DNA of 64,000 bases from Candidatus Omnitrophota bacterium (GTDB lineage: Bacteria; Omnitrophota; Omnitrophia; Omnitrophales; JACROU01): positions 91,516-155,515 of the forward strand of contig JAJDCD010000005.1 of the NCBI GenBank assembly GCA_029261035.1. Reading direction: 5' to 3'. Shown piece by piece: positions 25,746 through 51,600 of this stretch; within the stretch, counting starts at the first letter, position 1, and each line of letters starts with the position of its first letter. Both the position numbers and the translations under genes were made by a program. The notes under the pieces were generated by a model that saw only the letters and a list, made by a program, of their open reading frames with translations, made no database searches and had not been told where the DNA came from.

Positions 25746-25747
25746 TT

Positions 25748-26590: not shown

Positions 26591-26610
26591 ATAAAAGACG
26601 GGTAAATACA

Positions 26611-32800: not shown

Positions 32801-35800
32801 TGAAGCATCAAATGCTGGGTTAGCAGTAGGAGATCAAGTTAAGTTAACCTCTCATCAACTCTTAGAAATGATGATTCAGAGAAAGCCTGAGTTAAAAGAA
32901 AAAATACGTTTAGATGCAACTCAAAATGATATTGCAAGAGGGATTATAAAAAGCTCAGCGCTATTGACGTATAAGAAACAACCTAAAATTAAAGAAGGTT
33001 TTGATTACACAGCTGTAGCCACAATGAAACAGATATTAGATGAATGGGGAGAGTTGCCAGCTAAAGGAGAAGAGTTATTAGAGCGATTATGGATGATTCA
33101 ACCAAAAGGACTTAGCAATAAGATTGAAATTCCTGCCTTCTATGAATTGGTAGAAAACATACCGTATATCTATTTTCATCCTAATTATACTGCTAGGAGA
33201 TATCGCACGGATAGCAGGAGTATAAATGACTTAAGAAGGACGATACGTAGATTGCTTAATTCGAATAAGGTTTTAACTCCTTTTCAAGTTTGGGAGCAAT
33301 TGAAGAAGAAATCTAAATTTAGAGACTTGTTTTATGTTGATTTCAATCGTGCTTTTCAGGAAGAAGCTTTTCCAGGTCAATTTGAAGAAATGACTCGAGA
33401 GCAAGCTGTTAATGAAATGGTGAGGTGGATACTAAATAGAGGTGTTTTTCAATATAGAATGACGGACCTTCATCAATCGCTTGAAACTGTTTTTGGTATG
33501 AAAATTACTCTTAAAGAGGTTCGGAAAGCTGTTCAAACAAATCAAGAGCTTTACTACCATAAAAGATTTGATGCTGGTAGAGAAAGAAGAGAGCTAATTA
33601 AAACAATTCTAGTGGATTCTGAAGATATCTGGTCTATTTCTTATAGTGCGCTTTTTACATTGTTGACAACGGATTTATTTGATGAGGAAGGTCTTCTTAG
33701 CAGGCTTTCTTTTAAAAAGCTAACAAAAAAACAATTGAATTTAGATTTAGAGATATTGGGAATAGACGATACGAACTCAAGATTGACTTATGTGGATTCT
33801 GGAACTGTAAAACCTTTTGATTATGCAGAGACTAGGGTCTTTGTAGAGGATGTGCTCACTATATTAAACGGAAACAGAAACTTAGAGTTGCAGCAAATTT
33901 TCAAAAAACTTCGAAGAGAGTTTCCTCGCAATGAAATTTATCAAAGGTTGACACTCCAAACATTTAGAAGAGAGTTCACCAACTCTCCTCAACTAGTGCT
34001 GCATCGTAGATATTTACTGCCAAGAGTCAAATATAAGCAAGATCGAACTTTACGTAGAGAGCTTTTAAGGGTGCTTGATGAGTATCCTCGATTGTCTCGA
34101 TATGGTCTTTGGTCTCGTTTACGTCAAAGAAAAGGTTTTGAAAATATTCCTTACTATAGAATTAGACCTTTTTTTGAGTCTGGGAGTGTAGATGATTTAG
34201 AAATTGTAGAGCATAAGAGATTTGGTAATGAGAATGAACGAGGATATATCCGAACTTTTGTGATTTGGATTTTGGATAATGTACCAGTGAAACGAAAGGT
34301 TGTTGTAGGAGATATTCAACAAGCTTTACTTTATGGTTTTGATATTAATGTAACTAGAGAGTTAATTCGGGGTTCAATTTTTCATTCAAGAGACGGATTG
34401 CATTCAGATAATAGGATGGATATAGATCAAGAAAGAAAAGAAATTTTAATTGATTATTTTTCAGATTATAACCTGCAGACAATTTCATTAAGCCAATTAC
34501 AATCTGATCTAAGAGGATTGGCTCAATACCTTGATTTTAGCGATGAAGTTATTTTAGCGGATCTTGAAGCTGTTGGGCTTCTGGACAGAGTTACGCTTGA
34601 AACGGCAACTTTGACGACTGATGGGTCAGAGGTCACTGTGACAGATCCTTTAGATAGTTCTGGTAATACAGTAAGAACTTTAGGGGCTGCTCCAGAAATT
34701 GAGTTAGGAGAGGGGGGTAGCGAAACTCGATTTAGAGTTCGGGATTTAGTTTTAGAAGGAAAAAGAGAACGGCCAGATACAGCCAGTCATTTTGGGTATG
34801 CTCGCATGAATGACGAAGTGATTTCTGCTAGAAGAAGAGAGATGATGAGAATATTAAATGAAGCGCAAGAGCTTGAAGTCCCAATTGGACCTAGAGAATT
34901 GTGGGATTCATTAAGAAGTAGGCCTGGTTTTGAACTTTCTACACTGGCAACTGTATTTTATGATTTAAAACGTATTCCGGAATTGGGTAATCATCCTGGA
35001 AGGAGAAGGGTAGATCGTTTAACTCTCCAAGAGCATGATGATTCTGATGAGAGCTTAATGAGAAAATTAACAGATAGAGTTATGTCTGAAATCACAAGTT
35101 GGAATTTGTTTAGAAGCAATGAAGACAAGCTCTTTCTGACCCCTGAAGAATTATATGATGTTATTATTGAAGCTCATAACTCTTTGGCAGAACGTTTAGG
35201 TCTAGAGCAATTTGTTGCATTTATTTCGGAGGAAAATATTAACTACCAATATCTTGTCGAGAGAAAAAGTTTTTCTGAATTAGAAACTCGTTACCAGGTT
35301 CTAGCGGTTACTTTATTGGTAGACTATTTAAATGAAGAAGGGACCTCACCGGCTAGTATTGAAGAGCACTTTTTAAAGTTAAAGTCCATTGATCCAGATT
35401 TGTTTTCGAGCATTGAAAGCGCATCATTTTTCTCTATTTGGGCTCAGTTCCCACAGCTTAATTATCATCCTAAAATACAAGGGAATAATCGATCTCAATT
35501 GGGATTAGATGAAATAGAGCTTCGGCAATTACAATATAGAATTTCAGGTCGCCTTAATGCTGCTGAACGACCTTTGACATCTCTAGATTTGCAACAGGCG
35601 CTACGAATTGTTAATGGGATGGAAATTGAATTGTCAGAACTGCAAGAAGAACTGCGTTCTCCTGAAAATAGAACGAACTTCTTTGAGCATCCAAATTTTG
35701 ATTCTGGTTATGAACAAAGATTAATGCTTGCTGAAGTGTGGGCAGGTGCTGATGGAATTATGTCTGAGCTTGAATTGTATGAGGAATTCTTTCAACGTTT

Positions 35801-38800
35801 TGGAATGTTACTTACTTTTCCAGAGTTTGAGAACCTTCTTGAAGTAAATAGTGATTTGTTTATTGATTACAGACAAATTGCTAGCTCTGGTAAGGCAAGG
35901 GTGCTACGCATTATGACAAAGGTTTTGGACTATTCAGAACGTTCTCTAACTTATAGAGATCTTCAAGCAATTCTTAAAGAAAAATTCAGTATTTATTTGG
36001 TACCAGCGTATCTTTATAACATCATTACAGAGAAAAATTCATTATCTTATTCTATTGTGAACCATCCAAAATATACTTTCCTTTCAGTGGGTCAACAAGA
36101 AGAAACTCACAAAGACGAAGTCTTTCAAGGGTTTTTAGGTCGCAGGGTGTATGAAGCCCTTTTCGTTACCAATACACGAATTACTACAATTGCTGATATC
36201 AGGGAATTGATTAAGCGAGGATATGTCGTTGGAGAAAGGTCGGATGAAGAAGTAGATCAAGCAATTAAGAATTATATTAATCAATCTATTTTGTTTAGGA
36301 ATGGACAAGGCCAATTTATAGGCCATTCGAACTTACTCGTTGATCTTGATTTTGTTGAACCAACTCGCCCTGGATATGATCAAACCATAACAGAGGCCGA
36401 AGTGGATCTGAGATTTGTGAATGAAGAGGTTGTTGAAGTAGTTACACAGGGACCTTCTGAAGTTAGAAAGATAAAACAAGCAGAAAAAACTAAGCTTGTT
36501 GTAGCTGGTATTTTGGCCATACTGAATGAGGTAGCGGAAGAACAAAAGTATAAGCATGCTGTAGAAAAAAGATTACTTAATGCTAATGATATTGCCGCTC
36601 TTTTAAAAGAACGTTCCCCTGAGCTTTTGCCATCTACGCGAACCCGAAATAATGAAATTTTTCATTATATTTATTCAAATGAGTCTCTTTATCATCATCC
36701 AATGTATGTTAGGCCTTTGAGATCTGGAGAAATTCTAACTGCGGCAGTATCTATTTTAGAGAAAAGTGAAAAAAAATTAGGCTCTTTTGATTTGTGGTTG
36801 GAATTAAGAGATTCTCCAGCTCTTCAAAATATTTCTTTTCGGGACTTTAAAAGAGCTATGAAAAACAGGGATGATCAATTTGATTTGTTTGAAAATTTCA
36901 AACCTTTAAGTGAGTCAGATGAATTAGAAAATGCTTTGCTTTTTATGGATGAATTGACTGCAAATAAAGATTTTTTAGAAATAAAAGGAATGTTAAGAAA
37001 CTTCTTTGATATTGACGCTACACCGGAGTCGATAGTTCGACTGTTAGGGCAAGGTATTGAAATAGATATTGATAACGCATTGAAACAAAGATATTTTGAG
37101 GACTTTATTTCTTTTCAAGTAGGTGGCGGGTATGGGTTAACTTTTGTCGGGGTTTTGAAAGCTTTGGAAGAAAGTTATGGTTGGGAATTGAGAGAAGAAG
37201 AATTGATCAACGTTATTCAAACAAGTTCTAATTTAAGTGTATATAAATATTTCTCGCCACGACTGATTGTTGCTATAGAAGCTAAAAGAATACTAGATAG
37301 GTCGGATAGAAAGATTACTATTGAAGAAATTCATCAACGGATGAAAGAGCGACTTCCTGATGTCAAAAGTATTCATAATGATAATGCTTTAAGCCTTTTA
37401 GACTTTATGATGGAAAGAGACCTTGTTGGTTTATATCACCACCCAAAATTTAAGTCGAAGGATTCTGTAACTATAGAGAAACTGTGGGAAGAATTTAACC
37501 AATTAAATATTTCAGAAATTACAGGAAGTGATTCTGTAAGCATATCCAAGACAAATAAGGATAGAGTTTTGATTGTTACATCTTATAGTCCAAAGCAAGT
37601 AAGACAACGTACTATTTTAGAGGAGTTAGATATTAAATACAACCAGCCTATTCCTGAAAATGCTTGGACTGGATTAAGAAGAGATATGACGGCGGCAGAA
37701 GTATTGAGTGCTATAAAAGAAAAATTTGGAGTTGTTGTTTCCCCCGCAGAATTTAGAAGAATAGCTCTTAGAAAATCTGGTAGTACATCTGACCTGTTAG
37801 CGCATACGCGTTATATGGGTTACATCAACGAAAGAAGGTTAAGGATTAAACAGGTTTTAGACAGGAAAAAAGTAACTCGATTTAGGCTTATGCCTAGTGA
37901 TATTGCGAGAGAAATTTTAGATGAGTTTCAGATATCTGCAACTACAACAGATATTATGAAGGATTTGATTGTTATTGATGGTGGATCTTATATTCATCAT
38001 CCAAATTTTCTACATCAGAGAGAAGTAGTTCAAGCCAAGAAAGATGCTGTAAGAGAGTTGTTGATAGAAATAGCCAATGGAAGAGATGCTGTAGATGTTA
38101 AATTTAGTACTCTTATACCAAAGCTGAAAAATCTATATGGTTTTGAGGTGGCTCTTCGAAGTTTGGAAAAGATTTTTAGAGATAGTAAAAATTACTATGA
38201 TTTTAGAATTAGTCGTCAACAAGGAGATATGACGGCTCATATTCAAAAGTTTAAAACTGATGAGCCTCAAGCGCAACCAACGAAGCCGACTGTTGAAAGA
38301 GCGGAAGCATCTAGTTTGGGTGCAGCAATTAACCGAGATGATGTAATTCGTTTTGAAGAAAGTTACGATGTGACTTTGGAAAGTGTTTTAGATATTATTT
38401 CGGCAACACGGGAAGTATTGGGGCCTGATTTAAGAGACTACTTTCCTTATATTTACAAACAAATGTTAGCAGCACTTGAAAAAGAATCTGAGGTGCAAGT
38501 GCCTGCTTTGGTTGTTGCAGGGGAGGTAAGTCCTGAAGCGGTGCTGGTGCAAGTTAAATCAAATACAACGTTTGTTATTTACTATCAAGACGAAAGTTAT
38601 CCAGAGCAAATTGCTGTTGTAGCAGAAGAATTGATTCAATCAGGATTGATTGCCAGAGAAGATATAGATTCTCATATTCATTTGGTTTCTTTAAGTGATT
38701 TAGGTATTACAGAGCTTGAATTTTATGAACAATTATTTGATGGAGAAAAACTAACAGGTAAGAACCTTGCGCGCATTGCAAATGACGCGGGTATTTACAA

Positions 38801-39116
38801 ATTAAGAGAGCATACAGTATGGTTAGATTCCTCAGAGCGCATTCAAACTGTGATGGAAGATATGCTTGTCCCTTTTGGTCTACCATTTGAAGCAGAGCGC
38901 CGGGATTCTCTTTTAAAAGAGAATCGTGCTTACTATGACATGATTAAATTGACTTTGGCCTCTGCTTTATCTAGAAATCCTAACGCTTTAGTTGAACGGG
39001 GATATGTCATCTTTAAAAATAACCGCTACCAAATGACTGACTCCTTCATCGCTTCATACCTCGAAGGAATCTTGACCCAAGAACGAGTACAAGACCTCAT
39101 TGCCAGCATGGCATAA
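29880..39116 (+). CDS. Giant protein 1 (3078 aa): signal-peptide-like N-terminus, N-domain shared with giants 2 and 3, degenerate internal repeats with a recurrent YHHP-type motif, and a shared C-terminal domain
   Basis: Uninterrupted 9.2-kb ORF. N-domain motifs 'YLIQDAHESLDAQKNI', 'VYFEGG' and 'MGGFHSDAV' are shared with the other two giants. The C-terminal 270 aa are homologous to the ends of giants 2 and 3. Confidence 0.85.
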   Translation: MTLKSFQKSQIFVRSISMLVLSVFLLDSTVQASQLSVLSQQAPLIVAPKYLKLPNIIPSAEVAQVDDYFLNDLSHKPILYLIQDAHESLDAQKNIYQLLKMLVQERGVKKVYFEGGATELDKSFYQFSNKPKLNQDVWEALFESGEMNGVEFYSTQAPEYVRFLGVEDESLYFENVYALKKVFDLQDLTKERLNEVERKIENLKGVHLTGDLKKVWDLQQSFDKKHIDLFQYANEVSRWTEKELRLDMSQVRNQDAWPQLVRLQQIRILEQGIQQSQKALRVELQLIQERNRGEVFQPFSFLWNPQQHALAQGHLRWYFEKCLDLLKKNNQSFSKDYPHLESWIGFHILKDEIKASDLFNEIQVLTNKVIENIEVSNNSKSFLSWLQKWNLFQKLILVKLNKEEWLQILNQEEAYDPVKLLNNPEYFQEPIESLDILHQLYQESLQNYHCVTQRDQTLFNKMIQDITASPSDSVLVMGGFHSDAVKALLKQERQSFVVFNPGIKDLSHTLDYKSLMTRNSISSMKEVSRDQVAVPYEAAFGADSKNIIPYQEAVRQQAQIALAASLGKVKHGDEPWLSAFVAIESLIDENDVIFRLVFEDEFTTEFLKETLRNISDSSQRRLQIDSAHLLKTFLITTYEENHDILAPNFREWLEEFKGLANELYSRIMEISDAENIAGFLEKGLLSQYDSKGTTTDIAKFNGIMDLAGIVQGMNSPVRDIYSASRITNLLSPEVLFSHSVVQGLDFVQDGEEVVIYHEEIDDEDGNILFFIFIIDQTIEQGDVKSTQRRDFLMSTVTGDVIPLAVGHEDIFWTEEDQLLHVLYPPNLEITYDVFLKLDDGGFEPLKAPYTANSLGASAEDGSDLSKQERLKLRRNTLKSVLDDLIEDKTFVTSWGLVGVLVERILEKEPRLAQFVNRKLITNDLKKPGIKDKYTNLRKLINKRKESLSVADISLKTNTITDVRRALMKQILSEIEASNAGLAVGDQVKLTSHQLLEMMIQRKPELKEKIRLDATQNDIARGIIKSSALLTYKKQPKIKEGFDYTAVATMKQILDEWGELPAKGEELLERLWMIQPKGLSNKIEIPAFYELVENIPYIYFHPNYTARRYRTDSRSINDLRRTIRRLLNSNKVLTPFQVWEQLKKKSKFRDLFYVDFNRAFQEEAFPGQFEEMTREQAVNEMVRWILNRGVFQYRMTDLHQSLETVFGMKITLKEVRKAVQTNQELYYHKRFDAGRERRELIKTILVDSEDIWSISYSALFTLLTTDLFDEEGLLSRLSFKKLTKKQLNLDLEILGIDDTNSRLTYVDSGTVKPFDYAETRVFVEDVLTILNGNRNLELQQIFKKLRREFPRNEIYQRLTLQTFRREFTNSPQLVLHRRYLLPRVKYKQDRTLRRELLRVLDEYPRLSRYGLWSRLRQRKGFENIPYYRIRPFFESGSVDDLEIVEHKRFGNENERGYIRTFVIWILDNVPVKRKVVVGDIQQALLYGFDINVTRELIRGSIFHSRDGLHSDNRMDIDQERKEILIDYFSDYNLQTISLSQLQSDLRGLAQYLDFSDEVILADLEAVGLLDRVTLETATLTTDGSEVTVTDPLDSSGNTVRTLGAAPEIELGEGGSETRFRVRDLVLEGKRERPDTASHFGYARMNDEVISARRREMMRILNEAQELEVPIGPRELWDSLRSRPGFELSTLATVFYDLKRIPELGNHPGRRRVDRLTLQEHDDSDESLMRKLTDRVMSEITSWNLFRSNEDKLFLTPEELYDVIIEAHNSLAERLGLEQFVAFISEENINYQYLVERKSFSELETRYQVLAVTLLVDYLNEEGTSPASIEEHFLKLKSIDPDLFSSIESASFFSIWAQFPQLNYHPKIQGNNRSQLGLDEIELRQLQYRISGRLNAAERPLTSLDLQQALRIVNGMEIELSELQEELRSPENRTNFFEHPNFDSGYEQRLMLAEVWAGADGIMSELELYEEFFQRFGMLLTFPEFENLLEVNSDLFIDYRQIASSGKARVLRIMTKVLDYSERSLTYRDLQAILKEKFSIYLVPAYLYNIITEKNSLSYSIVNHPKYTFLSVGQQEETHKDEVFQGFLGRRVYEALFVTNTRITTIADIRELIKRGYVVGERSDEEVDQAIKNYINQSILFRNGQGQFIGHSNLLVDLDFVEPTRPGYDQTITEAEVDLRFVNEEVVEVVTQGPSEVRKIKQAEKTKLVVAGILAILNEVAEEQKYKHAVEKRLLNANDIAALLKERSPELLPSTRTRNNEIFHYIYSNESLYHHPMYVRPLRSGEILTAAVSILEKSEKKLGSFDLWLELRDSPALQNISFRDFKRAMKNRDDQFDLFENFKPLSESDELENALLFMDELTANKDFLEIKGMLRNFFDIDATPESIVRLLGQGIEIDIDNALKQRYFEDFISFQVGGGYGLTFVGVLKALEESYGWELREEELINVIQTSSNLSVYKYFSPRLIVAIEAKRILDRSDRKITIEEIHQRMKERLPDVKSIHNDNALSLLDFMMERDLVGLYHHPKFKSKDSVTIEKLWEEFNQLNISEITGSDSVSISKTNKDRVLIVTSYSPKQVRQRTILEELDIKYNQPIPENAWTGLRRDMTAAEVLSAIKEKFGVVVSPAEFRRIALRKSGSTSDLLAHTRYMGYINERRLRIKQVLDRKKVTRFRLMPSDIAREILDEFQISATTTDIMKDLIVIDGGSYIHHPNFLHQREVVQAKKDAVRELLIEIANGRDAVDVKFSTLIPKLKNLYGFEVALRSLEKIFRDSKNYYDFRISRQQGDMTAHIQKFKTDEPQAQPTKPTVERAEASSLGAAINRDDVIRFEESYDVTLESVLDIISATREVLGPDLRDYFPYIYKQMLAALEKESEVQVPALVVAGEVSPEAVLVQVKSNTTFVIYYQDESYPEQIAVVAEELIQSGLIAREDIDSHIHLVSLSDLGITELEFYEQLFDGEKLTGKNLARIANDAGIYKLREHTVWLDSSERIQTVMEDMLVPFGLPFEAERRDSLLKENRAYYDMIKLTLASALSRNPNALVERGYVIFKNNRYQMTDSFIASYLEGILTQERVQDLIASMA

Positions 39117-39631: not shown

Positions 39632-42600
39632 ATGACGCTTTTGATACGTTTTAAGCAGGCCGTAACCTATTTTGTTTTAGTTTCATTTTTCTTCTCATTT
39701 CTTCCAACAAATTCTTATGCAGATGGTGCAACCATTGGTACAATAAACAGCCTTATGACCACCAATCAATCTATGACACCAACACAACTCAAATTAAGCG
39801 AAGTAGCCATCCCTAATAAGATAGGTGTTATTGAATATACCTTCAAGGGGAACTCTGCGCCTTTATTTTATATTCAGGATGCTCATAATTCATTAGAAGC
39901 TCAAAAAAACATAGCGGCTTTAATTAGTCTTTTGGTGCAAGAGTACGGTGTTAAGACTGTTTTGGTTGAGGGAGTTGAAGGTAAGGTAAATCTGGACACT
40001 TATTTTCAATTTTCAGATTCTAATGTTAAGGAAAAAGTTTCAGACTATTTTCTGGAACACCTTCGTCTGAGCGGAGCTCAATATGCTCATATTAATCGAA
40101 CCCAAGATTTTGATCTTATTGGAATTGATCATTTTAAAACATATAAGAAAAATCTTTCAGCCTATGAAAAAGCTGCAAAAAACCGAGAAGTCATTCAGCA
40201 AGACTTGGCTCGAATTTCTAAAGTTCTTAAGTCTTTAGGGGATCGTTTCTATTCTAAAGAAATTAAGGAATGGTTAAAGTTAAAGTTAAGAGTGGAAGAT
40301 AAAAAGCTTTCGATGGGGGATTACCTGTTTCGTTCGATGAAAATGGGCGATTTTCAATTAGAACAATTTCCAAATTTGAAATTAATTTCAACATACCTCA
40401 AACAAGATCAATTATCTAAAGAAGAAGCAAGCCTTTTAGACAAACAATTGAAACAATTGGATTCGGATGTTTTTTTTAATGAATTGAATCAATTTGAAGA
40501 GGCTTTAATTAATCAGTTTTTGACGGACGCTACAGCTAAACAAGTATTAAGATATCAACGTATCGTTGATTTGTTAAATAAACTGAACCTGATTTCAGTA
40601 ACACCGGAAGAGTATTTATTGTTGAAAGAAGAGTTGAAAGAATTTAACTCTGAAGTTCTGGCTAAATTTTTAGCTGCCCATTTAAAGAAAACAATTTTAG
40701 TAAAAAAAGAATGGGAAAAGCTAATCAAGAACTCCCTTGAGTTTTATGAGTTGGCTCGCGAAAGGGATGTTTTCTTCAAAAGACAACTTGAAGCAATTAA
40801 CACCCCTTCAATTTTGGTTACAGGAGGTTTTCATAAAGAGCCTGTGACTAACTTCTTGAAAAAGAATAAAATTTCTCATGCTGTTTTGGCACCTCAAATT
40901 AGTCGTATCAATAAGAAGTATCAAGAACGATATGATTTCTTAATGTCTGGTCAGTATTATGACTTTGAAACATCTTTTATCAAACAAGACCCTGCCGTAC
41001 AAGCAGCTCAGCAGCAAACCTTAGCTTCATTTGCTCGAGATGGGCGGAATGTTCAAGGGATTGTGAATGAAGCGATTATTCAGTTGTTTCCTAATTCCCA
41101 AGAGGCTCGTGCTGCTAGTTTAGGAAATGATAATGCTCTAAAAATTGAACAAGCTTTGAGTCAGGGAGATATTACAACCGGAACCATGCAGTATCTTTAT
41201 GAGTGGTTGAAGCTTCCTGGAGACTTAACTATTCAAGGGACAAATGTATTAGCACGTATTCAGACATTGATAGATGGTAAAAATTGGAAAGAGCTTAATG
41301 ATGCTTTTTTTCAAGAAGTAAAACCAGGAACGGCAGGTGTTCGTGGAGAGTTGGGGATCGGAAGTAATCGAATTAATGTGGTAACCATTGGTAAGTTTGT
41401 AGAAGGTCATGCTCGCCACTTGGAAGCTGTGTGGGCTGGTAAGGTTGAAGGAAAAGAGATTGATACAAACAAGACAGAAAAGGCTGTAATTTTAGCTTAT
41501 GATCCTAGAGAAGGTTCTTATGACGCCCAAGCTAAAGGGCCAGGTTATTTAGTTAAAATGGCTGCTGCCATTTATGCAGCGCATGGATTTAAAGTTTACG
41601 TGTTTGATGGTCCTGCACCAACGCCAGAGTTGTCCTTTGCAGTTCAAAAGCTGGGGGCATTAGCAGGTGCTGTATTTACAGCAAGCCATAATCCTAAAAC
41701 GGATAATGGGTTTAAACCTTATGACGAAACAGGTCAGCAACTTTTAGGCCCAGATGCTGAAGGTCTAAATCAATATGTGGCTGAGATAAAACAGTTTTCT
41801 GATGTGAAAAAAGCATCTTATGATGAAGCTCTTGAGAAAGGGCAGGTTGAAATTGTAGGGCCTACCATTGATGAACAATATGTAAGTGAGTTGCTTCAGT
41901 ATGGTGTGCACATTAAAGCTGATGGTAAATATGACCTAGAACACATTAATACAGATATTACTGTTGGATTTTCTCCTTTGCATGGTACAGCGGGAAGAAC
42001 AGTTCCTGCTTTATTAGCAGAAAGAGGAATTTCTGCAGAAAATATTTTTAATGTTGAAAGCCAATTAAAACCTGATGGAACATTTCCAACAGCAGCAAAG
42101 CCCAATCCAGAAGAGGATGCGGCGTTAGATTTGTTAAAACAATTGGCAGTTGAAAAGAAAGTTGATGTAGCAGCAGCCAACGATCCTGATGCAGATAGGG
42201 TTGCTGTTTTGGTTCCAACCAGTGATGCTAAAGAAGAGTATTTTCTTCTAAACGGGAATCTACAAATGGCAGTGATTGCGGATTATTTACTGAACCAACT
42301 TTCTAAAAAAGGAACTTTACCTAAAAATTCTGTTTTTTGGAAATCTTTGGTGAGCTCAGATCTTATGATGAAAATAGCAGAAGCTTTTGATATTCCAACT
42401 GTAGAATCCCGAGTTGGTTTTAAATTTGCCGGGGATAAAATGAAGGAATACGAAAAACTAGCCGTTGCTCAATTGTTATTAAATGATGAAGAAGAATTTG
42501 TTGCTATTAAAACAAAAGTTGAAAACGACGGGTACAAGAGTCTAAATCGATCCGAAAGAGAATTGATTCTTTCTCGTTTCTCTCAAGTTCTATTGTTTGG

Positions 42601-45355
42601 TGGAGAAGAATCTTATGGGGCTAATCGTGGGGATATTGTTCGAGATAAAGATGGTCCTGCTATGATTGATATGTTTGTTGAAATTGTTGGACGGTATAAA
42701 AAACAAGGAACAACTGTTTATGATCGTCTTTTTGGAGCTAAAGGCATTTTTGATACCTATGGGTATTATCGTGAAACTTTAGGTTCTTACAAGACGCAAG
42801 GAGCTGAAGGAAATGCAATTAAACAAGCGATTATGACAGAGTTTGCATCCAATCCTCCAGCAGAAGTTGCGGGAAAGAAAGTTGTGGCTGTGTTAGATTT
42901 TGCAGAGCAGACAGCTAAATTACCTAAAGGAACACTTCTTTTTGATGGGGAATATAAAAGCGAAACTACTCCAGGTAAGTTTGAACTTGAAAATGAGTAT
43001 GAAGTACATACGTTTAATGACTTGAATGGTAAAAATGTGGGGAGAGAAGGATTTGTGGAGTTGATTTTTGAAGATGGTTCCCGTGTCATTGTAAGACCTT
43101 CAGGGACAGAACCAAAAATTAAATTTTATGCCCTTGGAAGAGGAGAATATTCTGATCGTGAGGCAGTTGATGTATTTATCTCTGCCGCACAAACGGAATT
43201 AGCAGAAATTGCAACCAAAGTTGCAGATAGTTTTAATGCGGCTTCTCTAGGAGCGTATTCGGAAGCTGAATTGGAAAAAGGGAAGGCTTATTATGAAGGA
43301 AGGTTGGATACAACCCCTATTTCTCGACCATGGAGACCTAGCATTGATGCTGACGTTGATGCTATCTTTAAGATGGATACTGCTGAAAGGTTAGAATACA
43401 TTGCTTTGGCGGTTGAATCTCTCATTAAGGGGAAGGGTGTTATAGGAACTCTTGCTGCAGGTGCTAGTTCTCGTATGCCAACTTCTGAGGCTCCTGAAGA
43501 AGTTAAAGAATTGATTCAAGGTAGGGAGATTAAGTCTAAAGCTGCTGTTCCAGTAGGTGTTCTTGATGGACAGGTTTATACTTTTTTAGGAGCTTTCCTA
43601 AAAAATATTGAGCGTCTTCAAAATCAAATTTCTGATTTAGCACGTTCTGATGTTAGACCTTCTGTTTTGATTTTATCTAATCAAGATTATAGGGAAGAGC
43701 TTCAGACGGAGTTGGATAGAGAAAGTCGTTATGGTTTAGATGAGAGTCAATTTGTGGTTTTTAATCAGGAGTTAGGCAACCAATATGTTGCTACTCCAGA
43801 GCATGTCAGAAATCTATATGAATCTGGAAAAATTGATAAAGCTAGATACGATCAAGCAATAGAAATTTCTGAGAATGTTCAAAAGAGATTGTCTGATGGC
43901 AGTATTGAGGCGGTAATTTTGGAGGGGGAACAAACTCCTTTAGGTCATGGTGAGTTTTTTCATCAATTAATTTCTAGCGGGACATTTTTGCAGCTCGTAG
44001 ATAAAGGGCATGAATGGATAAGTGTTCGTAATATTGATAATGCAGCGGCCACTTTTGATGAAGACTGGCTAGTTACTTTGGGTCTTTTTATAAAAAAAGG
44101 ATTGGCGATGCAGCCTGAGGTATCTCCGCGAAGCCCAGGACAAAAAGGTGGAAGTTTGATTGTTACTACAGATAACGGAAATCATCGATTGGCTGAAGAT
44201 CCTGAGATTGCTGCAAAGGGCTCAGAAACCAATTTGCAAAAGGATTATATTGGAGAGACTTCTTATTGGTTTAATGATGCTGTTGCGATTATTGGAACTC
44301 AATTTGTTGTTGATATTTATAAATCTCCTAACCAGTCTAGTGAGGAATTTCTAAATGAACTTCGTGCTAACGCAGAAAACCCAACTGTGCTTGAAGCAAT
44401 AGCTGAAAGAGGGAGAAGTAAATTTCCAACGCTCATGGACCCTAAACCAGCGAAAGAAAGTGACGCAATATCACTAAAGATTGAAACGAATATGTGGCAG
44501 TCTACAGGTGTTGGTAGTGGTGCTGTTAGAGTAGAAGCTGTTGGAGTAACTGCAGTAAAGAATATAGAGCAAGGTTTTGCTGATTTGCCTCTTGAAGATC
44601 AGCGGCAGAAGGTTAGAGAATTAAGAATGTTAGCAACAAAGCAATGGGGGAATCCGGAAGATCCTCAAGTTGAAACTTATTATGGAAATAAGCCTTACAT
44701 AGAACTAATTTTGGAACACATTGCAACTTCTCAATTTATTCCAGAAGGTTTAGATCTGTCAAAAGCTTCAAGTTTGGGTGTGATGACCAAGGAAAAAAGA
44801 CTATCATTACTGGAGTCAGCATTTAATGATTATGCTGCTCTCTTGGATCAACCAGCACCGGTTGTTCTTTCGTTAGACGATGTGCTTAACTTTTCAGATA
44901 CGGTGGCTAAAGAGGTTCAAGTTCTTCTCTTAGAAGGAAAGATAAAGGTTCTTTTAACAGGGGTGACTGATCGCTCATTAGTTCCAGATGTTTTTAATCA
45001 GGAATCTCAAAATGTAGAAATTATTTCAGATGCTATTAGCGCAAACGATGTATCTAAATACAGTGGTTTCTTAGGAAAGGGAAAAGTGGTTCACTTATCT
45101 CAATCTTTAGATTCTCCTGAAACGATAGCCTCTCGTTTGGGTGACGCAAAAGACCGCTTTGTTTTCGTGAAACAACCAGAAAAACAAAACGGAGTATTAA
45201 GCGCCGCGCTTCTTTTCGCATCAGGTTCTATTGAATACAAAGAAGCATTCAGACAAGACGCTTCTGGTTTCTACGTTCCAACAGCCATAGGTCGTCTCAT
45301 GATGAATTTATTCCAAGAATATGTAGCGCAAACGATTATCGAGTCTGCAGCCTAA
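39632..45355 (+). CDS. Giant protein 2 (1907 aa): signal peptide, shared N-domain, a complete alpha-D-phosphohexomutase (PGM/PMM) domain, a eukaryotic-type UDP-glucose pyrophosphorylase (UDPGP family) domain, and the shared C-terminal domain
   Basis: PGM motifs all in frame: 'GTAGVRG' (~41330), 'TASHNP' (41678-41695), 'DPDADR' (42182-42199), 'GEESYG' (42602-42619) and 'RPSGTEPKIKFY' (43094-). UDPGP-like: 'LAAGASSRM', 'FNQ', 'GHGEFF' (43943-) and 'ISVRNIDNAAATFDEDW' (44030-). Confidence 0.85.
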   Translation: MTLLIRFKQAVTYFVLVSFFFSFLPTNSYADGATIGTINSLMTTNQSMTPTQLKLSEVAIPNKIGVIEYTFKGNSAPLFYIQDAHNSLEAQKNIAALISLLVQEYGVKTVLVEGVEGKVNLDTYFQFSDSNVKEKVSDYFLEHLRLSGAQYAHINRTQDFDLIGIDHFKTYKKNLSAYEKAAKNREVIQQDLARISKVLKSLGDRFYSKEIKEWLKLKLRVEDKKLSMGDYLFRSMKMGDFQLEQFPNLKLISTYLKQDQLSKEEASLLDKQLKQLDSDVFFNELNQFEEALINQFLTDATAKQVLRYQRIVDLLNKLNLISVTPEEYLLLKEELKEFNSEVLAKFLAAHLKKTILVKKEWEKLIKNSLEFYELARERDVFFKRQLEAINTPSILVTGGFHKEPVTNFLKKNKISHAVLAPQISRINKKYQERYDFLMSGQYYDFETSFIKQDPAVQAAQQQTLASFARDGRNVQGIVNEAIIQLFPNSQEARAASLGNDNALKIEQALSQGDITTGTMQYLYEWLKLPGDLTIQGTNVLARIQTLIDGKNWKELNDAFFQEVKPGTAGVRGELGIGSNRINVVTIGKFVEGHARHLEAVWAGKVEGKEIDTNKTEKAVILAYDPREGSYDAQAKGPGYLVKMAAAIYAAHGFKVYVFDGPAPTPELSFAVQKLGALAGAVFTASHNPKTDNGFKPYDETGQQLLGPDAEGLNQYVAEIKQFSDVKKASYDEALEKGQVEIVGPTIDEQYVSELLQYGVHIKADGKYDLEHINTDITVGFSPLHGTAGRTVPALLAERGISAENIFNVESQLKPDGTFPTAAKPNPEEDAALDLLKQLAVEKKVDVAAANDPDADRVAVLVPTSDAKEEYFLLNGNLQMAVIADYLLNQLSKKGTLPKNSVFWKSLVSSDLMMKIAEAFDIPTVESRVGFKFAGDKMKEYEKLAVAQLLLNDEEEFVAIKTKVENDGYKSLNRSERELILSRFSQVLLFGGEESYGANRGDIVRDKDGPAMIDMFVEIVGRYKKQGTTVYDRLFGAKGIFDTYGYYRETLGSYKTQGAEGNAIKQAIMTEFASNPPAEVAGKKVVAVLDFAEQTAKLPKGTLLFDGEYKSETTPGKFELENEYEVHTFNDLNGKNVGREGFVELIFEDGSRVIVRPSGTEPKIKFYALGRGEYSDREAVDVFISAAQTELAEIATKVADSFNAASLGAYSEAELEKGKAYYEGRLDTTPISRPWRPSIDADVDAIFKMDTAERLEYIALAVESLIKGKGVIGTLAAGASSRMPTSEAPEEVKELIQGREIKSKAAVPVGVLDGQVYTFLGAFLKNIERLQNQISDLARSDVRPSVLILSNQDYREELQTELDRESRYGLDESQFVVFNQELGNQYVATPEHVRNLYESGKIDKARYDQAIEISENVQKRLSDGSIEAVILEGEQTPLGHGEFFHQLISSGTFLQLVDKGHEWISVRNIDNAAATFDEDWLVTLGLFIKKGLAMQPEVSPRSPGQKGGSLIVTTDNGNHRLAEDPEIAAKGSETNLQKDYIGETSYWFNDAVAIIGTQFVVDIYKSPNQSSEEFLNELRANAENPTVLEAIAERGRSKFPTLMDPKPAKESDAISLKIETNMWQSTGVGSGAVRVEAVGVTAVKNIEQGFADLPLEDQRQKVRELRMLATKQWGNPEDPQVETYYGNKPYIELILEHIATSQFIPEGLDLSKASSLGVMTKEKRLSLLESAFNDYAALLDQPAPVVLSLDDVLNFSDTVAKEVQVLLLEGKIKVLLTGVTDRSLVPDVFNQESQNVEIISDAISANDVSKYSGFLGKGKVVHLSQSLDSPETIASRLGDAKDRFVFVKQPEKQNGVLSAALLFASGSIEYKEAFRQDASGFYVPTAIGRLMMNLFQEYVAQTIIESAA
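41250..43170 (+). other. Phosphoglucomutase/phosphomannomutase-like domain within giant protein 2
   Basis: All five phosphohexomutase signature motifs are present in the canonical order (see giant 2). Confidence 0.8.
43300..44750 (+). other. UTP-glucose-1-phosphate uridylyltransferase-like (UDPGP family) domain within giant protein 2
   Basis: The 'GHGE...SG...L..G.EWISVRNIDNAAATFD' block parallels eukaryotic UGPase 'GHGD...SG...G.EY.FVSNIDNLGATVD'. Gly-rich 'GTLAAGASSRM' parallels 'LNGGLGTSMG'. Confidence 0.6.
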
Positions 45356-45669: not shown

Positions 45670-48600
45670 GTGTCTTTTAGAAAGGTTTTTGCTTATTTAA
45701 TGGGATTTTTGTTGGCACAAAAATATAGGTGTTTAGTAAGGTTTATATCCATAAACTTGGCTTTTATCTTTTTGTTGAATACGGTTGTTGAAGCAGCTCC
45801 GTTGATGCAACATGTGATGACTCCGTCTGTCTTATCCCAATCTGCTATTAATTCTTTTTCTCAACCTCCTTATCTTCCTTTAAGCCCAATTCAAATCAAT
45901 TCCCAGATAGGTTCTGTTCAAGAGAGCTATTTACCCGTAACAAAAAAAGATTCTCCACAAGTTTACTTAATTCAAGATGCTCATGAGAGTTTGGATGCTC
46001 AAGAGAATATTAAGAATATTTTAGAAAAACTTGTTCTAGAGGAAGGTGTGGATACCCTTCTTTTTGAAGGTGGAAGTCTTGATTTTAATTCAAGTATTTA
46101 TCAATTCTCTTCTGATATGGAAATAAATCATCGAATGTGGAAAGAGTTGTTTCGTCAAGGGCACTTGAGCGGGGTGGAGCTTTTTGCTTTAAATCAAAGT
46201 GGTTCCGTTCGATTGAAAGGAATTGAAGATGAATCTATTTATTTTAAAAATCTCAAAACAATTTTAGATACAAATCGACTTTATAAAAAATCTCAAGATG
46301 AGATATTGAGAATAGATCAGCAATATACAATAAAGAAACAAAAAACTTTTTCTGAGCCTTTAAGAAAATTAATAAAAGAAAGAGATGATTTTAGAAAAAA
46401 CAAAAACAATTTTAATCCATATATGCTCTTTTTGATGAAAGAAGCTAAAAAGCGTATAAACCTGGATTTGTCTCAAGCTAAATACCAAAAGCAATACCCT
46501 CAACTTGTGCGTTATTCGAAAATTTCTCAATTTGAAAAAAAGATAAAAGAAAATAGGGATGAAGTGGAGAAGCAACGTATAGAGCTTTTAGAGTTAACTC
46601 AGAATAAGGTGGCTAAGAGTTTGACTAAAGAAAGCTTTCTATTTCTTTTTAATCCAGAGCAACATTATTTAGCTCGAGATCAGTTGCGTTGGTATTTTGA
46701 GTCTTGGTGCGAATGGGCTCAGGCAGAAAATATTGATGTTCAGTTGTACTCTCATTTTATAAATTGGATGGCTTATCATATTCTTAAAAATGAAATGAAA
46801 GGCCCTCAGCTTTTTGATGAATTACAGACTATTGAAATCTTGTTGTTGAAGAATTTGAATCTATCAGAAGAAGAACGGAAGTTGTTGGCCGAAGAGGATG
46901 GGTGGAATTTATGGAATAAGCTCGTTTCTTTAAAGCTCACAAGAGAGGAGTATGAGCGACTTAGAGATACAAATCCTAAGAATGATTTAAAGGGTTTGAA
47001 TTTGTTAACCCAAAAAGCCCTTGAAAACTATGAATGGGTGATCAAAAGAGATGCTGTTTTGTCAGAAAAAGCAATTGAAGCAATAAATTTAAGTAAGTCT
47101 AGTCGAGTTGCTGTCGTTACGGGGGGGTTCCATTCTTACTTTTTAACCCAGAAACTTAAAGAAGAAAAAAAGAGTTATGTTTTAATTGCACCCCGTATTT
47201 CCCAATTAGAGCGTTCTTTGAATTATAAGGATCGAATTCAACAATTATTTTCTTCGACAACAGCATTGGATATTCCAGGAGCTCTTTTGAGCGATCTCTC
47301 CAAACAACGTTTGCTTGTAGCTGCAAGATCTTTGGGAATCCAAGGGGCTAAGAAAAAGGATCTTCCAAGAAAGAGTGGGGCTCAGAGAGAAGATGAAATT
47401 TTTAGAACTCATATTTCTGTGCCTATGCCAGAAATAGAACAGATGCTTTCCTTTCCAGGAAGAATCCAACCATCAATGCAAAATGCTTTGAATGAAACAA
47501 TCAAGCTGATTGTAACGCTGTTTGAAGATGCTTTAATTTCTGTTAATAGAAATGAAGTAGAAAATTTAAAGCGATTTCAAAAATACCCAGGAGGAATTTT
47601 TTATAATCATTTAACGGATGAGCTTAGAGGTGCTATTTCAAATTCTTTGGACTCAACTTTGGAGCGCTATCGACGAGAGGGTATTAGTAGGGAGTTTATT
47701 CATATTGTATTTCGAGTTTATAAGGACCAAGAAAGTAATTATTTTATTGATGTTATTGACGAAGGTGTTGGGGAAACAGCAATTAACAAGACGAATGTTA
47801 AACGTTATTCCGGAGAACGGTATTTAGGAAAGAGAGGAGTTGATCGAGGGAAATCTCTAGAAAGTCAAGTGATGGGTGTTTTTGATGCTCAGCTTTTTGA
47901 ACGAGAAGATGCTCAAGGTGCTGTTTTAGAAATAAAACTCAGCCAGAGAAAAGTCCTTAATCATTTTAAGGAATCAATGGAGGGTTTAAACCTTAGAAGG
48001 GTTAGTAAATACATGGATTCGTATGGGCAGAGTTTGGGTAGGACTAAAGAAGCTTACAATATGCGAATAAATGGTAACCAAGTAAATATACTTGACGCCA
48101 TGATGGAAGGAGAGTTTAAAACAACTTGGCTCACAAGTTTTAAACCTGAAGCATTGCCTAAACTAAAATTACCAGATAAAAAAGAATCGTATTCATTAGA
48201 TGAGGCTTTTATTGTTTTTAGGCAATTAAAGGGAAGTCGATCGTTAACTAAATCTGCATTTAGTGCATGGGTAAAAAAGGTTTTGAGTCGTAGAGCGAGT
48301 TCAAGGATATCTAGAGAATTGCTATCTAATTTGGTGAATACGTTTAGTCTTAGTGAAGCCCGTACTCATTTAGGTGGAGATATGGTAACTGTAAGAGAAA
48401 AAGCTAAGAAAGCAGGTGCTATTTCTGTAGAACATCGCATGTTTATTTCAAGGGATTGGGTTGATCGACAAAGAATTTATCGCTATCAATTGGTTCCGGT
48501 TCATTTGCTAGCAAAAGTAATGGGTGTGAGTAAGAAAGTTCTATTATCTTATTTGGAAGAGCCTAAGAAAAGATTCGGGGACTACTTGTGGGAAGAAGAC

Positions 48601-51600
48601 CTCTTAAAGAAGAAGTCTTTGTTAGAAGTATCAGCAGAGGGAACTAAATATCATATGGATGGGGCTGGTAAAGCATTAATGGTTAGTTTGGTGACAGCGT
48701 ATCAAGTTATTTCAATTTATAGAAAATCATTACGAAACAAAAAGGAGTCTTACTCTGTTGATGAATTGGCAGGATTACTTGGAGTGACAAAAAACATTCT
48801 TGCTCAGGCTATTAAGTCTGGTGAGATTGCAGTGATCCACCTTCCTTTTTTAGGTCCAGAACCTAGAATTTCGATTGTAGATTCAGAGGGAATTCTAAAT
48901 ATTTTTTCAAAAGTAGTAAAAAATTATTCTAAAGTTCTTCGTCCTTATACAAAAAAGAAAATCTCATCTTGGAGAGAATTGATGGCTGTTGTTTCTGGGT
49001 GGGAAACAACCAACTCTTTAAAGGAAAAATGGGGCTTTAAATCTCATAATGGAATTCATCAGATGATGAGTAGGGGTAAAATTAAAGGGTTTCATATTGT
49101 GCACCCTTTAACAGAACAAGGGGTTTGGTATTTTCCTCCTGAAGAAGTAGGTCGAGTTGATGATTTGGAAGAGATGAAACTAGCCAAGGTTTTGAAGATG
49201 GTGAACAAAGGAAGTCGTGCAAAAATTAAGACACGAAGTGAGTTGGAAAAGGTGCTGCACTCTTACTTTTCTTTAGAAAAACTTGAAAAGCGATGGTCTG
49301 TTTCTAATCGAAGTTTGAAAGGAATGATTCAAAGAGGAACGTTAGAGGCAGTTCGATTAGATTTTATTGGGGAACAAAAGAGAGGGTATTTGGTTTCTCC
49401 TAAAGAGGTGAAGAGAATTGAGGGATTGGAACAAAAAAAATTAAAAAAAATTAAGAGATTTGTTTCTAAGTTTTCATCTCAAACAATTAAAACAATTGGT
49501 AAGTTAAGAAAAGTTACGCAGAATTGGATTAAACCAACAACACTTGATGAAAGACTAGGGATTAGAGGGGGTACAGTTCGGCAAGCTATTGATAATGGGT
49601 TGATTCAAGCTGTACGCATGGATTTAATTGCATTTGGTGGTGATAAGTCCGCATATTTAATTCCAACAGCAGAGATTAAAAGATTGGAAGGAAAAGTTAA
49701 AGCTCTAGCTAGAGATATCTCAGCTTTTTCAAAGAGTAAACCTAAAACAATTCAGGATATTAAAACAGCAACTAGAGAGTGGTTGAGAATTGAAGATTTA
49801 GCTAAGGAATTTGATGTTTCATTCGAAACCATTTTTGCGTTAGTGCGATCGGGTGAAATAACAGCGTTTAAATTAGATTTAATTGGTTTAGGGGCATCTA
49901 AAGCTCCGTACGTGATTCCTCCAGAAGAAGTATCGAGAATTCGTGAGGAGCAGAATGAGAAAAAAAGAAAAGTGCTTTCTTTTGTGGAGCAGTATGAAAA
50001 TGTTTCTTCTGAAGATGAAATAACGGTAATGAGGTTAAAAGATATTACGAGTCGTTGGGTCAAGTTAAGGCAATTTAAGACAGAGTTTGGTGTTCATTTG
50101 GCTACAGCGTTTAATTATGTAAGGCAGGGAAAAGTTAATGCAGTTCAAATGGATTTGTTGGGTTATGGAGGAAAGAAAGCATTTTACTTAATCCCACCTC
50201 AAGAAATTGAAAGAATTCGCCAAGAAGATAAACTTAAACTGACTCAAATAATTGATTTTGTTAGAACGTATATTAGTTCTAAAAGAAGAGTTAAGACATG
50301 GGAGGATGTTCAACAAGTTACAAATAGCTGGTTAAAGATTGAGGATTTAGTCAAAGCTGCTTCTGTTAAATTTGCGACAGCTTCAAGGTGGGTTAAAACA
50401 GGCAAGGTAAAAGGCATTAAAATTAAACTGATAGGGAAGAATAACACAAATGGTTATTACATCATTCCACCTCAAGAGATAGATAGGGTTAAAAAAGAAA
50501 GAATGGATCGGAATAATCTAGCGTCTAGTTTAGGCCAGGAATCTACTGCTGTAGTTGATGTTCTATATCAAAAGTATCGATTTCTTTTACCTAAAAGTGT
50601 TCAGAAACAATTTAATTATGAGTTGGTGGCAGGGTGGTATGAAGTTGTTTCATCTGATACAACTGTACTTCCGATGAAAATATTTGATTTTATTCAAAAA
50701 GTATATTCTTTATTAAGTCCCAATGAAGTAAATCAAGTAGCTGTTTTATTAGCGGACTTTCAAAAAGAGATTACAGAAATTTTGACGGCAGATGAGTCAC
50801 TGGAACCGTCTGAAGAAGAAAAAGCACCTCAAGAAGTAGAGTTGGTAAAAGCAGTGGCGTTACAAAAGCTTGTGGAGAAAAGACCTTTAGTAGATGAGAT
50901 CTGGGAAGGAGACAAAAAAGCTCGGATCTCAATGGATCCTGTGTTTTGGGGTGTTCTGCATTCCGATGAAAAGAAAGAATGGTTAAAGAAAATAAAGAAA
51001 ATCCTTACCCGCAATTACTCTTCATTGAAAAAGGGGTTAGATTATGAAGAGCCTATTGGAGGCGGAAAAAAATTTAGGTCTCTAAAGTTAGGTTTGGTAG
51101 ACGCGCCGCTAGTGCTTTCCCACGGGGTTAAAATTCATGCTATGCAACTCAAAGGAGTTGTTTTTGATTCTGGAAATATAACAGATGTTTTTAATATGCA
51201 TCACGCTAAAAGAGAGTGGGGGCAGAAGCTCCCAGATGCTCCTGTCGTACAACCTATTTATCATGAAGATGGAACTATCAGTTACATCCCTCGACAGTGG
51301 TCTCCTAAGGGCGGAATGGTATTAGATGAGGCTAAAAGAGAATTTGAGATGCATCGTTATTTTATGAAAAGTGGAATGCCTGTAAATTACCCCCTTGCTT
51401 ATGGAGAGTTTTTGGGTGAAAAGGAACCATTAGGCAGAAAAATAGGATTTGTTTTATTAGGTCAAAGATTTCAACAAAACTATCGTTTCCATGATGTGCT
51501 GAACCGAATTTTGAATGCGAGGTATGTAGTGCCTATACAGGAGCTTTCAAAAGAGGGTAAAACACCAGAAGAGATCGAGAGTTTATTTAGAGAAACCGAA

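Follow-up and report, generated by a model that had tools for sequence, protein, structure and literature searches.

A predicted exported Omnitrophota long protein joining phosphoglucomutase and UGPase-like modules behind a TIKI-like carrier module

Enzyme-tiled long proteins of the Candidatus Omnitrophota are, as a broad phenomenon, already published. Phosphoglucomutase/phosphomannomutase (PGM/PMM), triose-phosphate isomerase, phosphoglucose isomerase, fructose-bisphosphatase and aldolase domains lie in predicted extracellular parts of Omnitrophota giants, for which proteolytic processing is suspected and the cleavage points are stated to be unknown (West-Roberts et al. 2023, 10.1101/2023.11.21.568195). 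A 2026 preprint reports PGM domains in 88 Omnitrophota long proteins, discusses their signal-peptide and transmembrane (TM) topologies, and describes starch synthase, GT1, PGM and ROK as a co-occurring “sugar module” (10.64898/2026.06.07.730766). These exported giants full of metabolic enzymes pose a puzzle: whether they are cut, where they are active, and why they stand behind signal peptides. Here we analyse a stretch of 64,000 nucleotides from a Candidatus Omnitrophota bacterium (contig JAJDCD010000005.1, positions 91,516 to 155,515, forward strand; hereafter the window), and in it a single open reading frame, 39632-45355 (+), whose product of 1907 residues, the smallest of three “giants” encoded in the window and hereafter giant 2, carries a complete PGM-type module followed by a complete UDP-glucose pyrophosphorylase (UGPase)-like module. 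This reading frame covers the interval 41250-44750 that had been flagged in a preliminary description of the window, in which the published reports of PGM domains in exported Omnitrophota long proteins were missed.

Giant 2, which is 100% identical to an entry of a public collection (P0001), is built of a signal peptide, an N-terminal module of ~440 residues (N-module), the PGM module, a module of the UDPGP family and a C-terminal module of ~190 residues (C-module), in that order. It had been described as a PGM and a UDPGP domain behind a signal peptide. Both domains and the signal-peptide-like start are indeed there; however, a conserved non-enzyme N-module of ~440 residues intervenes, and the conserved module of ~190 residues after the UDPGP part, as well as the membership in a very large modular carrier family, had been overlooked. 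The features of giant 2 are as follows.

39632-45355, + strand: whole open reading frame (giant 2), 1907 residues, no cysteine (reading frame and composition)
39632-39721, + strand: signal-peptide-like N-terminus, residues 1-30 (inspection; similar N-termini in family members)
39794-41110, + strand: N-module, residues ~55-493, TIKI/ChaN/TraB/Ere-like fold with a helical insertion
41111-41125, + strand: junction 1, AASLG, residues 494-498
41126-43237, + strand: phosphoglucomutase-type module, complete, residues 499-1202 (Pfam domains I-IV, PDB matches)
43238-43252, + strand: junction 2, AASLG, residues 1203-1207, between the ends of stand-alone orthologs
43253-44764, + strand: UDPGP-family (UGPase-like) module, complete, residues 1208-1711 (PF01704, subfamily profile)
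44765-44779, + strand: junction 3, ASSLG, residues 1712-1716
44780-45352, + strand: C-module, residues 1717-1907, an alpha/beta domain ending in IIESAA at the carboxy terminus

The PGM module contains the four PGM_PMM domains in order I-IV, each above its curated Pfam cut-off: PGM_PMM_I (PF02878) at residues 564-720 (E 8.5e-23), PGM_PMM_II (PF02879) at 772-860 (E 1.2e-18), PGM_PMM_III (PF02880) at 874-941 (E 9e-12) and PGM_PMM_IV (PF00408) at 1118-1170 (E 3.8e-7). Its motifs are GTAGVRG (starting at residue 566), the phosphoserine loop TASHNP (683-688), the metal loop DPDADR (starting at 851), the sugar loop GEESYG (starting at 991) and the phosphate loop RPSGTEP (starting at 1155); the phosphoserine, metal and phosphate loops align with those of archaeal and bacterial phosphosugar mutases of solved structure. 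Judged by these signatures, the module is a member of the alpha-D-phosphohexomutase superfamily in which none of the four catalytic loops is broken. The GEESYG and RPSGTEPKIKFY loops presumably resemble those of PGM2/PgcA-type enzymes, and the NCBIfam equivalog scores are far under their cut-offs (the best is Arch_GlmM, 116 bits vs. 439).

The UDPGP module matches PF01704 at residues 1434-1529 (E 1.1e-9; 38 bits vs. a cut-off of 22), a match that spans only profile positions 162-253 of 413. Its motifs are LAAGASSRM (1274-1282; AAGASSRM from 1275), FNQE (starting at 1377), PLGHGE (starting at 1436; GHGE from 1438), NIDN (starting at 1467) and QKGG, and PLGHGE, NIDN and QKGG align with UGPase motifs of Leishmania and Arabidopsis. 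Its nearest relatives, 460-530 residues long, are stand-alone proteins of bacteria, and PF01704 is found in 33 of 34 homologs. When a profile of this subfamily was searched against the PDB, the first 16 matches were all UGPases (E 1.5e-13 to 9e-11), with UDP-GlcNAc (UAP) and UDP-sugar (USP) pyrophosphorylases ranking behind them (E 3e-7 or weaker); this suggests a UGPase rather than a UAP or USP subtype, glucose specificity being a property that the profile does not prove. The GHG, NxDN and KGG positions are invariant across the subfamily, and so is a variant loop, LAAGASSRM...SK, which HMMER left unaligned to the solved UGPases and which is a plausible equivalent of the nucleotide-binding loop LxGGxGT.

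The UDPGP module is also present in P0004 and P0005, two further long proteins whose N-termini resemble signal peptides. P0005 (2610 residues, Candidatus Omnitrophica) has PGM_PMM_I together with a module of the same UDPGP subfamily, and BLAST gives no match between it and the carrier-family N-module; therefore, the PGM-UDPGP pairing recurs in a different frame.

Most of what the preliminary description had claimed for these two domains is upheld. The profile searches it had proposed return PGM_PMM_I-IV above their cut-offs and PF01704 at 38 bits against 22; the alpha-D-phosphohexomutase signatures are all present in the order it gave, including the catalytic serine/histidine loop, kept as TASHNP at 683-688; and the FNQ, GHG, NIDN and glycine-rich equivalents that it had named in the UDPGP part lie at the expected places and in the expected order. 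PGM and UGPase would catalyse consecutive steps, as it had pointed out, and both modules are complete with their active-site motifs. Its term “eukaryotic-type” for the UGPase is right at the level of the Pfam family, whereas the closest relatives are the bacterial stand-alone proteins described above.

A relative carries the same two enzymes as separate genes. The gene order on its contig (L001) is a giant, a PGM (710 residues), an overlapping UDPGP gene (495 residues) and a giant with HTH_17 repeats, so that the pair takes the place between two giants that the fusion has in the window. The stand-alone PGM is 57% identical over residues 504-1198 of the fusion, and the stand-alone P0123 (495 residues), the best UDPGP homolog, is 56% identical over residues 1212-1710, aligned from its residue 4 through its last residue. 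Given that these alignments end at the motif positions, the junction motifs sit at the ends of proteins that exist separately. The stand-alone pair has no signal peptide, N-module, C-module or junction motif, and its cysteine content is normal. The relative's 2.17-Mb contig carries P0123 and an IspG 82% identical to the IspG of the window. The PGM module has, beside the stand-alone gene and the PGM-UDPGP fusion, a third state: P0002, which consists of the N-module, PGM and the C-module, is 54% identical to giant 2 and occurs on 7 contigs, which come from independent samples. Directly downstream of P0002 (L086, 14261-22123) lies a gene for a further long protein with sugar-phosphate enzymes, of 2620 residues and with Glucosamine_iso (PF01182) and His_Phos_1 domains.

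Export of giant 2 is well supported, because signal-peptide features, cysteine loss, signal-peptide-bearing homologs and charge topology all point to it, and we infer that the protein crosses the cytoplasmic membrane. By inspection, its N-terminus (MTLLIRFKQAVTYFVLVSFFFSFLPTNSYA followed by DG) has a charged n-region, an h-region and small residues at −3/−1 (S-Y-A before D), as in Sec signal peptides: R6 and K8 are followed by a hydrophobic stretch of ~15 residues (10-24) and by PTNSYA/DG, where the slash marks the putative cleavage point. The next basic residue after R6/K8 is K53. As the positive charges precede the hydrophobic stretch, an N-in, C-out orientation is predicted, with the bulk of the protein outside; a Kyte-Doolittle scan found no further TM segments beyond the N-terminus.

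In bacteria that lack an oxidising system in the periplasm, exported proteins are known to exclude cysteine. The three giants of the window contain 2/3078, 0/1907 and 2/5887 cysteines (giants 1, 2 and 3, respectively) vs. 1.1% in the other 24 open reading frames of the window (binomial P ~6e-10 for giant 2, and 6e-10 to 9e-26 over the three giants), and the mean cysteine content of 122 family proteins is 0.25%. The stand-alone orthologs of L001 have 6 and 2 cysteines, all 8 of which are replaced in the fusion. Moreover, canonical signal peptides and 0-1 cysteines are found in five stand-alone proteins homologous to the UDPGP module (P0124-P0127 and P0147; identity 50-53% where reported), whose predicted mature start, Y[ST]KDEL, falls on Y1209 in the alignment, two residues past junction 2. 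The “secreted” location given in the preliminary description is in line with all of these observations: the signal-peptide-like start, the absence of cysteine where orthologs without a signal peptide have 8, and the signal-peptide-bearing homologs.

Two side observations concern export. On the contigs of the signal-peptide-bearing homologs P0126 (L083) and P0125 (L085) there are genes for a TLC ATP/ADP translocase, for an M1 peptidase or for a Lipase_3 protein; this gene content suggests that a UGPase-like enzyme is exported by an obligate intracellular bacterium. In the window, 8243-9436 (+) encodes a protein in which a membrane domain of the DsbD/CcdA type is joined to a thioredoxin domain; it is a route by which reducing power leaves the cytoplasm, and the predicted exported giants of this genome avoid cysteine.

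The N-module defines the carrier family. More than 100 long proteins (1000-3300 residues) match giant 2 by BLAST only at residues ~55-450, always at their N-terminal part, and carry unrelated cargo behind it, including NDK, alpha-amylase, phosphoenolpyruvate-utilising enzymes, starch synthase, UDP-glucose dehydrogenase, ROK kinases, methyltransferases, radical SAM and sigma-70 domains. Glucokinase-like, NDK and starch-synthase modules are among those carried by sister proteins. An N-module profile searched against 1.84 billion representatives matched 9989 clusters, 6866 of them at E <= 1e-30, and the module was N-terminal in 150/150 of the matches listed. Species-representative genomes hold 503 copies, nearly all in Candidatus Omnitrophota and often several per genome. 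Giant 2 has both features of the enzyme-tiled Omnitrophota long proteins, a signal-peptide-like start and unrelated enzyme domains on one chain, and the carrier architecture is apparently a widespread means of exporting ordinary cytoplasmic enzymes.

The N-module adopts the alpha/beta TIKI fold, as indicated by its fold matches:

ChaN, 9.8
RRSP, 9.2
a TraB-family protein, 9.1
two “succinoglycan biosynthesis” proteins, 8.8 and 8.2
EreC, 8.5
HopBA1, 7.8

No PDB chain was matched by sequence, and among curated sequence models PF04187 was touched by just 2 of 25 members (best E 0.027). The TraB protein and the two “succinoglycan biosynthesis” proteins are ones that we take to belong to the TIKI superfamily. 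HopBA1 and ChaN are listed as TIKI-superfamily members in the paper on the RRSP structure, which treats erythromycin esterases as sharing the active-site architecture and describes a 2His/2Glu catalytic motif, with H3902/E3930 in RRSP and H85/E113 in the erythromycin-esterase relative Bcr135 (PMC6254334). In 25 N-module sequences, D83-x-H85, E113 and GGFH401 (398-401) are invariant, R378 and Y434 are also conserved, and the histidine-to-glutamate spacing of 28 equals that in RRSP and Bcr135. From this pattern together with the fold match, D83-x-H85, E113 and H401 are probably equivalent to the 2His/2Glu catalytic residues.

The C-module is common to giant 2, P0002, P0003 and P0007 and, more distantly, to the whole family. 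Its model is confident, with a predicted local distance difference test (pLDDT) score of 91.6, and it gives weak, generic HAD-like fold matches; as the catalytic D-x-D motif I is absent, we do not class it as a HAD domain. Most members end in small residues, AA or SA in this group and SL or AL in distant members.

The junction motifs are far more frequent than expected from shuffled sequences: AxSLG occurs 3 times each in giants 1 and 2 vs. ~0.15 expected, and [AG]xSLG occurs 12 times in giant 3 vs. 0.5 and 6 times in P0003 vs. 0.13. Most other close relatives instead use R[SAT]E[MVLIAT]R (193 copies vs. 6.4 expected). The 18 copies in the window have varied synonymous codons, and it is therefore the peptide that is under selection. 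Four relatives have clear Pfam domains, and 0/20 of their motifs lie inside a Pfam stretch. First copies cluster where the N-module ends; in most proteins the last copy lies ~175-210 residues before the C-terminus, at the start of the C-module. The C-module model is least confident where junction 3 lies, with a mean pLDDT of 53 over its first ten residues.

Two other origins of the motifs were considered and set aside. A DNA repeat, a recombination site or a by-product of Shine-Dalgarno sequences is at odds with the varied codons and with RSExR being unrelated at the DNA level, and glycosylation of the junction serine is unlikely, since alanine and threonine substitute for serine in RSExR-type motifs. 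In P0019, P0021, P0034, P0036 and P0043, an RSExR copy lies inside the C-module, within the C-terminal ~140 residues and just before the second predicted strand (e.g. NRSELRLVLYD); such a copy could be a pseudo-substrate or a docking element.

We put at roughly 50% the probability that giant 2 is a Sec-exported carrier, that its junctions are processed, and that its PGM and UGPase interconvert sugars outside the cytoplasm. By this account, the signal peptide would send out four independently folding units joined by short A-x-S-L-G linkers; the junction motifs would serve as processing sites, possibly cut by the N-module, to release free PGM and UGPase; and the two enzymes would interconvert glucose 6-phosphate (Glc-6-P), glucose 1-phosphate (Glc-1-P) and UDP-glucose in an extracytoplasmic place, which may be the periplasm, the cell coat, or the interface with or the interior of a prey or host cell. 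Possible partners would be modules for glucan synthase, kinases and NDK on sister carriers. An extracytoplasmic glucan pathway is conceivable, because glucokinase-like, NDK and starch-synthase modules occur on sister proteins and because of the co-occurring “sugar module”.

Several points weigh against this account. UGPase needs UTP, and PGM needs glucose 1,6-bisphosphate and Mg2+, none of which would be expected in the periplasm or the medium; this problem of substrate supply, chiefly of UTP, favours access to another cell's cytoplasm or the reverse reaction on released nucleotide sugars. The sugar preference of the PGM module (glucose, mannose or glucosamine/N-acetylglucosamine) is not narrowed by NCBIfam, and both export and junction cleavage are predictions from sequence. 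The RSExR copies within the folded C-module mean that not all copies can be linker cleavage sites; a k-mer search of the 69 proteins, out of 122, that form the more distant half of the family yielded no junction motif common to them; and the exact four-module fusion was found on one contig only. More tentatively, giant 2 may exemplify a general “carrier polyprotein” route in Omnitrophota and their relatives for the export of normal cytoplasmic enzymes, in which a signal peptide, a TIKI-like protease head, full-length enzymes in any number and a conserved tail would be combined, the head would cut lineage-specific junctions (AxSLG, RSExR) and pathways would be rebuilt outside the cell or in prey; one such pathway might run from glucose through Glc-6-P, Glc-1-P and UDP-glucose to glucan, with NDK regenerating nucleotide triphosphates.

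It is possible, though we consider it doubtful, that the exported protein stays in one piece as a scaffold at the cell surface or in the coat, with AxSLG serving as flexible hinges or as sites recognised for modification or assembly, and Glc-1-P channelled from one active site to the other. The enzymes do stand in pathway order for consecutive steps, and the motif copies within the C-module of relatives speak against simple cleavage. However, stand-alone genes end where the junctions lie, and homologs with signal peptides have their predicted mature start at junction 2; the motifs vary among lineages and are strongly conserved within each, which fits a co-evolving recognition factor better than a passive linker; and every family member is headed by a hydrolase-like module with intact catalytic residues. 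An effector polyprotein translocated into prey or host, like MARTX toxins or the secreted glycogen enzymes of chlamydiae, and whose released enzymes redirect host sugar metabolism, would solve the substrate problem, as UTP and hexose phosphates are present in a host, and Omnitrophota have been proposed to be predators or parasites (PMC10066038). The sigma-70, helix-turn-helix (HTH), kinase, NDK, radical-SAM and glycogen-synthase modules of sister proteins fit only a cytoplasm-like milieu; signal-peptide-bearing UDPGP homologs share contigs with TLC ATP/ADP translocases, a hallmark of intracellular bacteria; Chlamydia secretes the PGM CT295 (PMC9251005); and the MARTX effector RRSP is structurally related to the N-module. 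Nevertheless, this proposal is unlikely: no translocation machinery, pore-forming repeats or secretion-system genes were found in the window, the protein, lacking cysteine, has no cysteine protease domain, and the metabolism encoded in the window is of a free-living type.

Two explanations that dispense with export fare worse. If the hydrophobic stretch were an anchor and the fusion faced the cytoplasm, UDP-glucose would be made near membrane glycosyltransferases, the cofactor needs of both enzymes would suit the compartment, and the arrangement would agree with the 2026 preprint, which argues for a cytoplasmic face for the sugar-metabolism modules of TM-only long proteins. This is quite improbable, given that R6 and K8 ahead of the hydrophobic stretch, with K53 as the next basic residue, predict N-in, C-out; that an h-region of ~15 residues is of signal-peptide length; that the total loss of cysteine vs. 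8 in the cytoplasmic orthologs is hard to account for; and that homologs with cleavable-looking signal peptides exist. That two adjacent genes were joined by misassembly or frameshift, or that the fusion is decaying, its product in either case not being made as a single chain, would agree with the presence of the exact four-module architecture on one contig and with the separate genes of the L001 relative. We regard such an artefact as highly improbable: the reading frame of 5.7 kb is uninterrupted and of even composition; the joins bear a motif that is present 15 more times in the two neighbouring giants together; the replacement of cysteines is systematic; and the P0002 layout is found on 7 independent contigs, with UDPGP modules also present within other long proteins.

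Giant 2 is flanked by the two other giants of the window:

29880-39116, + strand: giant 1, 3078 residues, same N-module, 3 AxSLG motifs, 2 cysteines
45670-63333, + strand: giant 3, 5887 residues, same N-module, 12 [AG]xSLG motifs, HTH_17 repeats, 2 cysteines

Giant 1 has no Pfam hit anywhere in its 3078 residues. Giant 3 contains many HTH_17 and other helix-turn-helix DNA-binding domains, as does, for HTH_17, the syntenic giant of L001; several of its repeats start directly after a junction motif (ASSLGRTKDHFNMTFEG, ASSLGRSKDHFDATVLG, ANSLGVAKEHFDIFVNG and others), and the presence of DNA-binding domains in an exported-looking protein is puzzling. The C-terminal regions of giants 1 and 3 were unmatched by BLAST to the C-module of giant 2; their ends read LIASMA and LLATMA, respectively, and that of the upstream giant of the L001 relative reads LIDTMA.

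The framing around Chlamydia in the preliminary description does not hold: the affinities of IspG and of the N-module lie with Candidatus Omnitrophota, and the window encodes free-living-type metabolism. A chlamydial origin was rejected on the same grounds, as the 503 N-module relatives are nearly all from Omnitrophota and the best named IspG matches are Omnitrophota. The alpha-glucan phosphorylase that had been noted at 10289-12304 (+) is recovered by Pfam (Phosphorylase, PF00343, E 8e-41). It has 671 residues and matches only central model positions 325-586 of 713; the short length and the central-only match therefore mark it as a divergent or shortened glucan phosphorylase. At 24369-27747 (+), genes for PrpD-like (MmgE/PrpD), PEP-mutase/isocitrate-lyase-family and citrate-synthase proteins are consecutive and look like a methylcitrate-cycle operon.

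In conclusion, the fusion, its boundaries, the cysteine loss, the TIKI-like head and the junction motifs make the open question about Omnitrophota giants directly testable. Giant 2 offers a module map with boundaries confirmed by a relative's stand-alone genes, candidate processing sites in the junction motifs and a candidate processing enzyme in the N-module, as well as a natural comparison between a cytoplasmic enzyme pair and its predicted exported, cysteine-free version; at 1907 residues it is small enough for expression and assay, unlike giants of 40,000-150,000 residues. If export of active PGM and UGPase were true, extracytoplasmic nucleotide-sugar metabolism would extend past the chlamydial inclusion, and this would suggest that glucans are built or dismantled at contact with other cells. 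If the carrier-polyprotein route were true, the cleavage points that could not be located in earlier studies of the Omnitrophota giants would be these junction motifs.

Compared with the Omnitrophota giants of the two preprints, giant 2 shares the phylum-level setting, the signal peptide and the tiled metabolic enzymes, including PGM/PMM. It differs in size, as the preprint proteins exceed 10,000-30,000 residues (with a size threshold of 10,000), whereas giant 2 has 1907 residues and a fully resolved module map; for the former, C39 and S8 peptidase domains were invoked. Text searches of both preprints did not find the UDPGP module, the TIKI-like N-module, the C-module or the junction motifs, and literature searches for junction motifs, the polyprotein concept and a TIKI link in Omnitrophota returned nothing; the PGM-UGPase fusion, its match to stand-alone genes, the cysteine loss, the TIKI-like head and the junction motifs were thus not found in the searched literature.

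As in Chlamydia trachomatis, which like the organism studied here belongs to the bacteria related to the Planctomycetes-Verrucomicrobia-Chlamydiae group, a housekeeping PGM (CT295 in C. trachomatis) and UDP-glucose-using enzymes are relocated outside the cytoplasm (PMC9251005; PMC4829429), a relocation that for giant 2 is predicted. However, the chlamydial enzymes of this lumenal glycogen metabolism are separate proteins with type 3 secretion signals that enter the inclusion; a Sec signal peptide, carrier modules, junction motifs and enzyme fusion are all absent there. The likeness to MARTX toxins is one of layout: conserved ends flank variable enzyme cargo, which in MARTX is freed by inter-module proteolysis. 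The MARTX effector RRSP is among the nearest structural matches of the N-module, although RRSP in MARTX is cargo and not the processing enzyme. MARTX toxins have glycine-rich repeats, type 1 secretion and a cysteine protease domain activated by inositol hexakisphosphate (InsP6); giant 2 has no such Pfam hits and no cysteine, and no secretion-system genes lie within the window. Finally, the cargo itself differs: toxins in MARTX, and metabolic enzymes in giant 2.

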